Part shown: positions 2,568 through 4,339 of the stretch, piece by piece
How positions within the stretch are numbered: the first letter of the stretch is position 1
Layout of the letters: each line of letters starts with the position of its first letter
DNA from: a virus
Lineage: Duplodnaviria; Heunggongvirae; Uroviricota; Caudoviricetes
DNA length: 4,339 nucleotides
Strand: one strand, 5' to 3'
Virus record (IMG/VR): IMGVR_UViG_2751185970_000011
The notes under the pieces: model-generated
Told to the model about the DNA's origin: nothing
The model's input: only the letters and a program-made list of their open reading frames with translations
Database searches by the model: none
Position numbers and translations under genes: made by a program

Positions 2568-2656
2568 GCAGAATATTTTGCTGAAAATAAGGCATGAGCA
2601 CGCGGACGGATAACACGAAATCCTGCGAACTGGCGAAACGTAAGTGAATAAAAGTA

Positions 2657-2695
2657 AAAACCCCGTTTGTTGGCACCAGGCGGGGTTTTGTGTTT
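2657..2695 (+). terminator. putative rho-independent terminator downstream of the endolysin gene
   Basis: AAAACCCCG (2657-2665), a 15-nt loop, CGGGGTTTT (2681-2689), then a GTGTTT T-rich tail. The GC stem is short and the loop is long, so predicted strength is moderate. Confidence 0.5.
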
Positions 2696-2722
2696 CTGAC
2701 CTTGAGTAAGGCAAGGGAGAAC

Positions 2723-2905
2723 ATGGCGAAGTATAAACGAATTCTGTTGAGGTTGACCATGAAAAACGGCCTTGAACTGAAAGCGCCTGTAACTGATGAC
2801 ATCAGCAGAGCACTGGCTTTTGCCATTAAGTGGGTGGCGGTCGGTGTTGCTGTGTCCCCGATGCTGTATGGGCTGGCAAAACTGGTCATTGCGTTGAAAT
2901 CGTGA
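2723..2905 (+). CDS. hypothetical small membrane protein (60 aa; basic N-terminus, C-terminal transmembrane helix)
   Basis: Purine-rich SD (AAGGCAAGGGAGA) just upstream of ATG 2723. MAKYKRILLRLTMKNGLELKAPVTDDISRALAFAIKWVAVGVAVSPMLYGLAKLVIALKS. Alternative internal start at Met13 (ATG 2759) also has a GAGG SD. Stop is 14 nt before the next gene. Confidence 0.5.
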   Translation: MAKYKRILLRLTMKNGLELKAPVTDDISRALAFAIKWVAVGVAVSPMLYGLAKLVIALKS

Positions 2906-2919
2906 AGGGAGGATTAAGC

Positions 2920-3051
2920 ATGTCAGACAAACTCATAACGCTGGCGAAGATCCTCTGTGTAATTGTCGGCATTTCATTTTCACTAATGCTGGTTGCTCTT
3001 TTTCTTTCCATGGCCTGGATGATGTTGTCTTCGTCGGGGCTGCTGGGGTGA
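2920..3051 (+). CDS. hypothetical small hydrophobic membrane protein (43 aa, single transmembrane helix)
   Basis: Strong SD AAGGGAGG (2905-2912) 7 nt upstream of ATG 2920. MSDKLITLAKILCVIVGISFSLMLVALFLSMAWMMLSSSGLLG. The TGA stop (3049-3051) overlaps the GTG start of Rz (GTGA), which suggests translational coupling. Confidence 0.5.
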   Translation: MSDKLITLAKILCVIVGISFSLMLVALFLSMAWMMLSSSGLLG

Positions 3052-3446
3052 ACATAAACCGAATGCTTTCCGCGTTTACCGTTATTCTGCTGGTGGTCTG
3101 TGGTGCGCTGTGGCTGGCAACAGACCATTACCGTGATAACGCCATCACCTACAAAGCGCAGCGCGATAAAAAAGCCAGAGAGCTGGAGCTGGCAAACGCA
3201 ACCATTACTGACATGCAGCAGCGCCAGCGTGATGTTGCCGCTGGTCGTAAGCGCCTGCGGATCAACGCCACCTGCTCCGGTACCGTGCGTGAAGCCACCG
3301 GCACCTCCGGAATGGATAATGCAACCGGCCCCCGACTGGCAGACACCGCTGAACGGGATTATTTCACCCTCAGAGAGCGGTTGATGACAATGCAGAAGCA
3401 ACTGGAAGGGGCGCAGGAATATATCCGCACTCAGTGTATTAACTAG
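3048..3446 (+). CDS. Rz: Rz i-spanin (inner-membrane spanin subunit), 132 aa from GTG 3048; alternative ATG start at 3063
   Basis: MNINRMLSAFTVILLVVCGALWLATDHYRDNAITYKAQRDKKARELELANATITDMQQRQRDVAAGRKRLRINATCSGTV...RDYFTLRERLMTMQKQLEGAQEYIRTQCIN. N-terminal transmembrane helix, coiled-coil periplasmic domain, conserved Cys residues. Strong similarity to lambda Rz as I recall it (HYRDNAITYKAQRDK..., PRLADTAERDYFTLRERL...). Confidence 0.85.
   Translation: MNINRMLSAFTVILLVVCGALWLATDHYRDNAITYKAQRDKKARELELANATITDMQQRQRDVAAGRKRLRINATCSGTVREATGTSGMDNATGPRLADTAERDYFTLRERLMTMQKQLEGAQEYIRTQCIN
3232..3384 (+). CDS. Rz1: Rz1 o-spanin (outer-membrane lipoprotein) embedded in the +1 frame of Rz; start codon uncertain (ATG 3232, or upstream GTG 3133/3100)
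   Basis: +1-frame ORF inside Rz: ...MLPLVVSACGSTPPAPVPCVKPPAPPEWIMQPAPDWQTPLNGIISPSESG*. Lipobox-like VVSAC, proline-rich mature region and conserved C-terminal motif (WIMQP.PDWQTPLNGIISPSE) match lambda Rz1 as I recall it. From ATG 3232 the signal peptide would be only 8 residues. Confidence 0.55.
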   Translation: MLPLVVSACGSTPPAPVPCVKPPAPPEWIMQPAPDWQTPLNGIISPSESG

Positions 3447-3469: not shown

Positions 3470-3694
3470 ATGAAGAAATTACTGGTAACCGTAAAGCCTT
3501 TTCAGGGAACAATTCCGTTCCGTATTTTGCAGCGTGGTCGTGTTCTTGTTGAAGGTTCGTTCAGTGGTAAATGTACGCAATTACACTCCCGGACCTTTCA
3601 GGTGAATGCCACGAATGAAGAGCTAACCGTTGAGTGTACGATGAATGCCGCTAAATGCCGCATGGTATCCGCTGCATTACAGCCAGTGTGTTGA
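3470..3694 (+). CDS. hypothetical protein (74 aa, basic, 4 Cys)
   Basis: GGAGA SD 4 nt upstream of ATG 3470. MKKLLVTVKPFQGTIPFRILQRGRVLVEGSFSGKCTQLHSRTFQVNATNEELTVECTMNAAKCRMVSAALQPVC. No signal peptide or transmembrane segment. Same strand as the lysis genes. Identity unknown. Confidence 0.4.
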   Translation: MKKLLVTVKPFQGTIPFRILQRGRVLVEGSFSGKCTQLHSRTFQVNATNEELTVECTMNAAKCRMVSAALQPVC

Positions 3695-4047: not shown

Positions 4048-4339
4048 ATGAGCAGAAAAAACCAACGTTACTCTAAAGAGTTCAAAGCCGAAGCTGTCAG
4101 AACGGTTCTTGAAAATCAACTTTCGATCAGTGAAGGCGCTTCCCGATTATCCCTTCCTGAAGGCACTTTAGGACAATGGGTTACCGCCGCCAGAAAAGGG
4201 CTCGGTACTCCTGGTTCCCGCACGGTGGCTGAACTGGAATCTGAAATTCTGCAACTGCGTAAGGCGTTAAATGAAGCTCGCCTTGAGCGAGATATATTAA
4301 AAAAAGCAACAGCGTATTTTGCACAGGAGTCGCTGAAAA
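4048..4339 (+). CDS. IS3-family transposase OrfA (partial, 3' end outside window)
   Basis: Strong SD AGAAGGAG 6 nt upstream of ATG 4048. MSRKNQRYSKEFKAEAVRTVLENQLSISEGASRLSLPEGTLGQWVTAARKGLGTPGSRTVAELESEILQLRKALNEARLERDILKKATAYFAQESLK... HTH then leucine-zipper-like heptads. Matches my recollection of IS600 OrfA. Confidence 0.85.
   Translation, partial: MSRKNQRYSKEFKAEAVRTVLENQLSISEGASRLSLPEGTLGQWVTAARKGLGTPGSRTVAELESEILQLRKALNEARLERDILKKATAYFAQESLK
4299..4306 (+). other. putative programmed -1 ribosomal frameshift slippery site (A AAA AAA G) for OrfAB transposase fusion
   Basis: Run of seven A then G at 4299-4306, in the OrfA zero frame as TTA AAA AAA GCA (L-K-K-A), near the expected end of orfA. 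A6G/A7 motifs are the canonical IS3-family frameshift signals. The downstream stimulatory structure is outside the window. Confidence 0.5.

Follow-up and report, generated by a model that had tools for sequence, protein, structure and literature searches.

Two widespread small membrane-protein genes between the endolysin and spanin genes of lambdoid prophages

The lysis cassettes of lambdoid and Shiga toxin (Stx) phages are treated as solved four-gene units, consisting of S, R, Rz and Rz1. The locus described here extends these units. It is a 484-bp insert (positions 2568–3051), located between the endolysin gene R and the spanin gene Rz in one 4,339-nt stretch of Caudoviricetes DNA (IMG/VR record IMGVR_UViG_2751185970_000011), hereafter called the window. 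The insert carries one terminator-like hairpin and two open reading frames (ORFs), ORF1 and ORF2, which are 60 and 43 amino acids (aa) in size, respectively. It breaks down into two small-gene cassettes that occur in lambdoid and other temperate phages and can be separated from each other; the first contains a GC-rich bidirectional hairpin, a leader of ∼30 nt and ORF1, and the second is ORF2, packed against the start of Rz. Both ORFs are genuine, widespread and uncharacterised genes for small membrane proteins in late operons; they do not amount to a new mechanism. As for their function, we favour, with a probability of about 0.4, the reading that ORF1 and ORF2 are terminator-gated, late-expressed and non-essential inner-membrane modulators of lysis by pinholin, signal-arrest-release (SAR) endolysin and spanin.

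Comparison with described lysis proteins and cargo genes

Small membrane-tethered helpers of pinholin/SAR-endolysin systems have been described in phage Mu (gp25; PMC9239132), LambdaSo (Lcc6; bioRxiv 10.1101/2024.01.23.576932) and BSPM4 (ORF52; PMC11657625). By sequence or architecture, ORF1 and ORF2 are outside these three, and also outside the holin/antiholin families. The gene for Mu gp25, the 'releasin' (DUF2730), is a few genes away from that of a SAR endolysin; its product, small, cytoplasmic and tethered to the membrane, helps to release this enzyme. However, gp25 is 99 aa in length and of N-out/C-in topology with an acidic 73-aa cytoplasmic domain, whereas ORF1 is basic with a C-terminal helix and ORF2 has almost no soluble part; neither ORF matches PF10805/DUF2730. 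Lcc6 of the Shewanella prophage LambdaSo is closer in size (∼65 aa); it is a single-pass protein without family, it belongs to a phage with pinholin, SAR endolysin and Rz-Rz1, and it acts at the holin step. Compared by description, the order of its parts is opposite to that of ORF1, since the helix of Lcc6 is N-terminal and is followed by a 43-aa cytoplasmic tail. Lcc6 has its gene near int/xis instead of in the lysis cassette, and lysis requires it, whereas many working cassettes lack ORF1 and ORF2.

Holin genes can produce dual-start holin/antiholin pairs, such as S107/S105 of lambda and S71/S68 of phage 21. Like these, ORF1 carries two putative in-frame starts, each with its own Shine-Dalgarno (SD) sequence, which would give one longer, more basic form and one shorter form. 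Different from these, the two starts of ORF1 are 12 codons apart instead of 2–3, ORF1 has a single helix, and neither ORF1 nor ORF2 matches any holin family in Pfam, NCBIfam or PHROG, whereas the holin at 1419–1634 was matched clearly. The window already carries its own S21-type pinholin; hole formation by ORF1 is a candidate activity. Spanin features are also missing: the helix of ORF2 is followed by just 14 residues, a lipobox is absent from both ORFs, and Phage_lysis matches only the Rz frame. Searches for either ORF gave no match in NCBIfam or PADLOC, no Pfam match (for ORF1 none at E ≤ 1; for ORF2 only the sub-threshold DUF3930) and no meaningful match in PDB.

By position, phage P2 offers a parallel. 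In P2, K encodes the endolysin and lysB/lysC the spanins; between them is lysA, which codes for a non-essential membrane protein with an effect on lysis timing. ORF1 and ORF2 likewise lie between endolysin and spanin; LysA, again compared by description, is ∼140 aa and has several helices. Classical morons, such as HK97 gp15 and lambda bor/lom, are expressed in the prophage from a promoter of their own and have a terminator behind them. ORF1 and ORF2 resemble them in being present or absent between otherwise collinear late genes (the Qin cassette of K-12 lacks them and the junction is variable among relatives), and in being flanked by one terminator-type hairpin. However, they have no recognisable promoter of their own, and the hairpin is upstream instead of downstream.

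ORF1 and its hairpin

ORF1 extends from ATG 2723 to TGA 2905 on the + strand and is known in RefSeq as the 'hypothetical protein' WP_001151823.1. It matches two PHROG families of unknown function over its full length, PHROG 1115 (2.6e-42) and PHROG 4493 (4.3e-30). The frame is intact in 126/126 related loci, where the polymorphic sites are distributed 17/4/37 over codon positions 1/2/3. The ratio of nonsynonymous to synonymous changes (dN/dS) is 0.23 in frame, compared to 0.56 and 2.54 off-frame; when the relatives are compared with the window alone, it is 0.06–0.16, resembling that of the endolysin R (0.04–0.12). ORF1 is therefore a real gene under strong purifying selection. The exact ORF1 sequence is present on at least 998 contigs, and a full-library hidden Markov model search with ORF1 returned just 22 cluster representatives, all of the same plan and ending in ...LKS/...LK or ...IRWW. 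A profile scan of genome contigs with the ORF1 alignment gave no confirmed locus.

In layout, ORF1 contains one basic N-terminal extension (MAKYKRILLRLT), followed by Met13, a soluble KNGLExxAPVTDDIS motif and an Ala/Gly/Val-rich C-terminal helix. The best 19-residue hydrophobic segment (residues 38–56) is moderately hydrophobic, with a Kyte-Doolittle value of 1.88, and the AlphaFold2 model contains helices 2–16 and 23–59. Owing to its net charge of +7 and the eight Lys/Arg residues on the N-side of the helix, ORF1 is predicted to be N-in and tail-anchored. A tail-anchored ORF1 and a single-helix ORF2, as proposed in the preliminary description of this DNA, are in line with both the hydropathy profiles and the AlphaFold2 models.

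The second start of ORF1 would give a putative 48-aa isoform (ATG 2759 to 2905, + strand), and this shorter form is annotated in many databases. It is preceded by GAGG at 2749–2752, six nt upstream of the ATG. Met13 is nearly invariant, and the GAGG at −10 to −7 comes from the rare Arg codon AGG in 31/36 unique ORF1 sequences. In L157 and L158, two of the related loci, the residues before Met13 are altered to VEVN, with the position of GGAGG unchanged. At the protein level, distant relatives retain the N-terminal extension too (YKRILLRLT, YRKFFRMRLS). Since the internal SD, Met13 and the extension are all conserved, both the 60- and 48-aa forms are probably made. The D-type mini-ORFs, which occupy the R–Rz junction in other prophages (2660–2797 in CP-1639, locus L004; 2646–2789 in L005), contain a basic ..FSKLIRE(I/L)R.. 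extension followed by an internal Met as well; this shared layout suggests a common dual-start design across the mini-ORF families.

The hairpin upstream of ORF1 resembles a bidirectional intrinsic terminator. It occupies 2653–2698, with an A-run before and a T-run after the stem-loop (2657–2689); the stem contains 13 pairs, six of them G-C, and the T-rich tail (TTTTGTGTTT) extends to ∼2698. The 155-nt intergenic stretch as a whole folds with −44.6 kcal/mol (z = −2.35). Downstream of the hairpin, the leader (2699–2722, + strand) carries the SD AAGGGAGA (2713–2720) for the long form of ORF1. A GC hairpin with T-run is located upstream of ORF1-family genes in 53/53 distinct upstream contexts, with folding energies from −11 to −28 kcal/mol. 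The distance from the hairpin end to the first start is ∼26–33 nt in most contexts (∼33 in the window) and reaches ∼60. Between contexts with unrelated upstream genes, similarity begins at the hairpin. In an alignment of 18 diverse hairpins, 99.4% of the cells are paired and three pairs are changed on both sides; the covariation score was reached by 0/500 shuffles, and slid registers scored far lower. Thus, the GC-rich stem-loop, the U-tract and the compensatory changes expected of an intrinsic terminator are all present. Rather than being simply the terminator of R, the hairpin is part of the ORF1 cassette and accompanies ORF1 into unrelated contexts.

Of all features of the insert, this hairpin is the one conserved most consistently, and it covaries; taken with the weak constraint and occasional frameshifts of ORF2, this would suit a model in which only the RNA hairpin is functional, as terminator, insulator or mRNA-stability element, and the ORFs are tolerated passengers. 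The constraint on ORF1 argues against such a model, both in its intact frames and codon pattern and in its in-frame dN/dS. In addition, the peptide motif MKNGLExDAPVT persists among relatives with widely different DNA, and the SD sites are conserved. We consider a hairpin-only function very improbable.

No + strand promoter-like site was found between 2568 and 2722 in the window, and none fits between hairpin and start in any lineage compared; the scan of the window also revealed no terminator hairpin downstream of ORF1 or ORF2. Without a promoter between hairpin and start, expression should need read-through, and in a lambdoid late operon such dependence points to Q antitermination. The hairpin is predicted to stop polymerase and to be read through by Q-modified polymerase.

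On the minus strand, one promoter-like site was found (TGGTCA-18 nt-TATACT, 2730–2759; 9/12 match), which is speculative. It would fit an antisense-controlled membrane toxin, resembling a type I toxin-antitoxin or the P22 sar/ant pair, in which a minus-strand RNA of ∼73 nt, terminated at the bidirectional hairpin, covers the SD and start of ORF1 by base pairing, so that a depolarising peptide stays silent in lysogens. Such an antisense RNA would explain why the hairpin always travels with ORF1. The hairpin is flanked on either side by A- and T-runs and keeps a fixed distance to the gene, the peptide is small, hydrophobic and basic, as far as sequence features go, and L149, L150 (TATAAT), Yersinia and the D32 ORF of CP-1639 (TAAAAT), which is unrelated, share a TAnnnT box at this offset. 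However, the box overlaps the Tyr-Lys codons of ORF1, so coding constraint can explain its recurrence. Promoter-like matches are not enriched in the window (three found, 4.2 expected), the −35 elements are poor in several lineages, no toxin promoter was seen, and there is no Rfam family match. The searched supplements on transcription start sites in EDL933 and on Hfq cross-linking and analysis of cDNA (Hfq-CRAC) in Sakai contained nothing usable on a minus-strand RNA. We consider an antisense-controlled toxin quite improbable.

ORF2, the Rz start and the mosaic junction

ORF2 (ATG 2920 to TGA 3051, + strand; RefSeq WP_001280932.1) has the SD GGGAGGA seven nt upstream of its start. It matches PHROG 4906, another family of unknown function, over its full length (2.1e-23). 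The frame is intact in ∼116/125 loci; five are frameshifted and two have lost the start. The polymorphic sites are distributed 17/11/20 over codon positions 1/2/3, and dN/dS is 0.41 in frame, compared to 0.61 and 1.67 off-frame. ORF2 is also a real gene, under weak purifying selection; such loose constraint is expected for a lone hydrophobic helix. Its best hydrophobic segment (residues 11–29) has a Kyte-Doolittle value of 2.89, and the AlphaFold2 model is a single helix (residues 2–38) with a predicted local distance difference test (pLDDT) score of 88. ORF2 is predicted to be an N-in single-pass membrane protein with a 14-residue tail outside. Its exact sequence is found on at least 1,000 contigs.

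One relative of ORF2 has been detected by ribosome profiling (RIBOseq). XECs191, reported as a novel translated gene of O157:H7 Sakai, has 30 reads per kilobase per million (RPKM) in RNA and 12.6 in RIBOseq in LB medium, and was predicted to be an inner-membrane protein (PMC5597208). This gene, now ECs_1966, is the ORF2 homologue between ant and Rz in prophage Sp10; like ORF2, to which it is ∼70–75% identical, it is located directly upstream of Rz. Different from ORF2, it follows ant and not ORF1, and its N-terminus was called 5–6 residues longer; it has no assigned function. Phage 933W (L147, AF125520) contains an unannotated 44-aa homologue (MISDKLITLVKSLCVLVGISFLVMLVAIFFSTAWRVLTLSGLVG) at ∼7436–7570, also between ant and Rz, whose stop is 7 nt before the Rz ATG. 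The two ORFs are therefore already catalogued, under their RefSeq accessions and PHROG families and through XECs191/ECs_1966. What is new, as read from the sequences compared, is the link of the hairpin to the ORF1 cassette, the putative dual start of ORF1 and the shuffled set of mini-ORFs upstream of Rz.

The i-spanin gene Rz (+ strand, Pfam Phage_lysis 9.9e-33) ends at 3446 and starts either at GTG 3048 or at ATG 3063. GTG 3048, the first possible start in the Rz frame, shares nucleotides with the ORF2 stop (3049–3051). In RefSeq, the orthologous Rz begins at the counterpart of ATG 3063, which has no SD in the window; moreover, only the GTG form retains the Asn-Arg preceding the membrane helix, as in 933W Rz. 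The earlier proposal that ORF2 and Rz overlap thus agrees with GTG 3048 and disagrees with the RefSeq start; owing to the missing SD and the retained Asn-Arg, the overlap is likely, though unproven. Whichever start applies, ORF2 and Rz are ≤12 nt apart; across all relatives, the spacing of Rz from the last small ORF is −4 to +12 nt, and arrangements other than R, ORF1, ORF2 and Rz likewise end in a small helix ORF 1–12 nt from Rz, as in a Yersinia prophage remnant. The late-operon orientation and tight packing against Rz stand as first described.

The 484-bp insert matches 2,121/5,426 complete E. coli genomes (∼39%), in 990 of which (∼18% of all 5,426) at least 80% of its length is matched; its two ORFs are always annotated there as hypothetical proteins. 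It is also present in the plaque-forming phages PhiR5_2 and PhiR12_x. Recurrence in hundreds of genomes with coding-type substitutions is more than chance, and the conservation as coding sequence on which the preliminary description had made its proposal depend holds for both ORFs. The hairpin and the 60- and 43-aa ORFs with strong SDs were recovered at the positions given above, and the stretch proved to be an insertion when compared with abutting cassettes; in K-12 Qin, rrrQ and rzpQ overlap and there is no R–Rz insert. ORF1 and ORF2 are not found in the cryptic prophages of K-12. The K-12 small proteins known from ribosome profiling (ynfQ, ynfR, ynfS and ynfU) were considered as candidates and rejected; they are in Qin, but elsewhere.

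In 79 loci, the order is R, ORF1, ORF2 and Rz. In 39 other loci, the ORF1–ORF2 pair follows another holin (PHROG 217) and another endolysin (PHROG 315), and a 60-aa lipoprotein (PHROG 7528) takes the place of Rz after ORF2. In L093 (3340–3522) and the 38 similar loci, this lipoprotein gene (ALVAILVPFFLVGC) overlaps the end of ORF2; no spanin is visible within the 6 kb examined of these cassettes.

The R–Rz junction is also variable. It may contain ORF1 and ORF2, an N-terminally truncated ORF1, C28 (MSAELIRAMAFAIRIVAIAVLVWAIRWW, related to the ORF1 helix) or the mini-ORFs D31 and D32 (..WKFLLVW..IKG and ..IRWW), and sometimes ant or a DNA methyltransferase gene. By sequence comparison, the junction is a shuffled set of related single-helix mini-ORFs. 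Neither is ORF1 always paired with ORF2, nor are the two confined to the place between R and Rz: 933W and Sakai have ORF2 without ORF1, other loci have ORF1 by itself or together with C28, and ORF1 relatives are found after tail-fibre or capsid genes. Thus, the two ORFs are separable. In two metagenome contigs (L151 230–735 and L156 3001–3903), tandem units of one terminator hairpin and one small IRWW-ending helix ORF were observed, as well as five small ORFs in succession downstream of a capsid gene, which indicates that mini-ORFs can form arrays.

The presence of ant at the same junction in 933W and Sakai Sp10 might suggest that the insert is the degraded remnant of a known gene, such as the antirepressor gene ant of Stx phages. 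This explanation is effectively refuted. The ORFs have no similarity to ant and a clear coding signature, and ORF2- or ORF1-type ORFs adjoin an intact ant in 933W, Sakai Sp10 and PhiR5_1; the preliminary description, which reads them as genes, is supported in this.

The first part of the insert is non-coding. An element at 2568–2626 (+ strand; GCAGAATATTTTGCTGAAAAT...GGATAACACGAAATCCTGC) is conserved downstream of R; it contains an outer inverted repeat, GCAGAAT/AT(T/C)CTGC, around a variable inner hairpin. Every R-type locus, 933W and Sakai among them, has it after R, and it is also found after the unrelated lipoprotein gene in the L093-type cassettes (L093 3535–3595 and equivalents). Within this ∼60-nt element (GCAGAATATTTTGCTGAAAAATG ... 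GAAAT(C/T)CTGC), the inner hairpin seems to vary in a compensatory way. Compared across loci, the element has no conserved reading frame; possible roles are those of a structured RNA or of a linker for recombination. A 17-aa ORF (2594–2647) in the spacer 2568–2656 was rejected as a gene, as 933W does not preserve its frame. A 142-aa minus-strand ORF (2461–2889) was rejected as well; it is unsupported, overlaps R and ORF1, both with + strand coding signatures, and is taken as an antisense-frame artefact. At E ≤ 1, the Rfam scan of the whole window found only the ALIL pseudoknot of the IS3 element and a meaningless rimP-leader match on the minus strand of the hairpin.

Possible function and setting of the window copy

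If ORF1 and ORF2 are lysis modulators, Q-modified RNA polymerase from pR′ would read through the hairpin and transcribe both. They would be made late, together with S, R and Rz, and in the lysogen the hairpin would silence them. ORF1 would yield the 60-aa form with the basic extension and, from the internal SD and ATG, the 48-aa form; ORF2, and via ORF2 also Rz, would be translated by coupling. Through contacts with the membrane helices of S, R or Rz, or through a contribution to depolarisation, the two peptides might determine when or how sharply lysis occurs, and the two forms of ORF1 may work like a dual-start holin/antiholin pair. Such a role is suggested by the position and packing in the late-gene orientation, the recurrence of the pair behind a second holin and endolysin in 39 loci, the coding signal, the lack of a recognisable promoter, the covarying hairpin, the dual start and the occurrence in plaque-forming phages, as well as by the weak transcription and translation of the Sakai ORF2 homologue.

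Several observations weigh against this role. ORF1 and ORF2 show no similarity to holin, antiholin, releasin or spanin families, and both are dispensable, as Lambda-type and Qin cassettes contain neither. ORF2 is loose in its constraint (dN/dS 0.41) and is frameshifted in five loci. One distant ORF1 relative is located directly upstream of Rz in the Yersinia prophage remnant, whereas 5/6 contexts of distant relatives are outside lysis cassettes (after tail-fibre genes, at the prophage end, after a capsid gene), a pattern more typical of general cargo than of a lysis gene. The junction itself takes unrelated cargo, as indicated by ant and by a 311-aa DNA methyltransferase gene found between ORF2 and Rz in L063 (3337–4272). 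Moreover, the Sakai culture used for RIBOseq was uninduced, so its signal may reflect expression in the prophage state.

In the main rival explanation, ORF1 and ORF2 are moron or lysogenic-conversion cargo, made in the lysogen and protective, for example through superinfection exclusion, and the R–Rz junction is merely a permissive hotspot. Examples of such exclusion are HK97 gp15 and T4 Imm, which act at the inner membrane and keep out the DNA of superinfecting phages. Cargo of this kind would account for the patchy mosaic distribution, for the movement of the cassette into unrelated late-region junctions, for ant and methyltransferase genes at the same site, and for an RNA-seq and RIBOseq signal of the Sakai homologue without deliberate induction. 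However, the absence of a + strand promoter in every lineage and the upstream terminator reverse the classical promoter-gene-terminator order, PADLOC gave no match, and the RIBO RPKM of 12.6 is low and compatible with spontaneous induction. We regard the cargo explanation as somewhat unlikely.

The lysis-modulator reading can also be extended to the whole set of mini-ORFs. The ORF1 family and its relatives (C28, D31/D32 and ORF2) might form an unrecognised fourth functional class of lambdoid lysis cassettes, namely single-helix, dual-start regulators acting on the pinholin, the SAR anchor or the Rz helix, each gated by its own hairpin, possibly with a cis-antisense RNA, and made only under Q antitermination. 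This extension is speculative, and we consider it rather unlikely.

The window represents the late/lysis region of one lambdoid prophage with insertion sequences (IS) at both ends. At the left end, an IS3-family orfA (1–321, − strand) with the ALIL frameshift pseudoknot (1–41; Rfam 43 bits, truncated at the window end) and, at the right, an IS600-like orfA (4048–4339, + strand) bracket the lysis region, in line with a decaying Shigella prophage. All other genes of the window are on the + strand. The 55-aa ORF at 582–749 matches positions 582–633 of the 634 in PHROG 143 and is the C-terminal fragment of a large esterase-type protein; SASA-esterase-type neighbours are present in relatives, and the ORF is probably a leftover of the adjacent IS insertion or of a deletion. 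It is followed by a DUF1378 gene (889–1071), a DUF826 gene (1097–1342) and the S21-type pinholin gene (1419–1634), which has a clear holin-family match. Between holin and endolysin is a DUF1327/YdfR gene (1639–1983), wedged there in K-12 Qin and Sakai Sp10 as well, which is another uncharacterised resident of the lysis cassette. Endolysin R (2034–2567; 177 aa) is an R21-like lysozyme with a SAR-type N-terminus (Pfam Phage_lysozyme 2.8e-24; PHROG 7). A 74-aa PHROG 2571 ORF (3470–3694) is located downstream of Rz.

The window holds only two terminator-like sites with 13 pairs. One is the ORF1 hairpin; the other is a strong hairpin (1352–1381) just upstream of the pinholin gene, which has no Rfam match. 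In prophages of enterohaemorrhagic and enteropathogenic E. coli, the anti-small RNAs AgvB/AsxR and the Pas small RNAs are encoded downstream of pR′ and upstream of the holin gene. The R–Rz stretch was considered as a small RNA locus of this known type and rejected, because those RNAs map between pR′ and holin.

No complete E. coli genome matches the entire window closely; the closest is ∼93% identical over 90% of it. Compared to the related locus L035, the window Rz has lost 75 bp in frame between direct repeats (TGATGTTGC), at ∼3229/3230. This deletion takes out 25 coiled-coil residues together with the start and the signal-peptide n-region of the embedded o-spanin gene Rz1, of which a remnant is left at 3232–3384 (+ strand; ...SVMLPLVVSAC, compared to MKLCVLMLPLVVSAC in L035). 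The spanin pair of the window is thus probably dead. The exact Rz protein of the window is widespread in Shigella and is recorded as 'lysis protein [Shigella]'; together with the lack of a close E. coli match, this makes a Shigella chromosome the probable source of the window. Owing to the IS elements on both sides and the Rz/Rz1 deletion, the prophage is defective, and its copies of the ORF1 and ORF2 cassettes are probably relics. Despite the decay of the prophage, both ORF sequences are identical to widespread alleles.

Even in 933W, the archetypal Stx2 phage, one of these small genes lies unannotated directly upstream of Rz. If the peptides alter lysis timing or the membrane state, burst size, the timing of Shiga toxin release and prophage fitness would be affected, and, together with Mu releasin and LambdaSo Lcc6, they would indicate that the three-step lysis model is incomplete. 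If the mini-ORFs do form a fourth functional class, lysis timing in Stx phages and in other widespread prophages, and toxin release along with it, would depend on genes that are unannotated or called 'hypothetical'. If they are instead exclusion or toxin cassettes, they would define a type of very small, terminator-led phage cargo gene.

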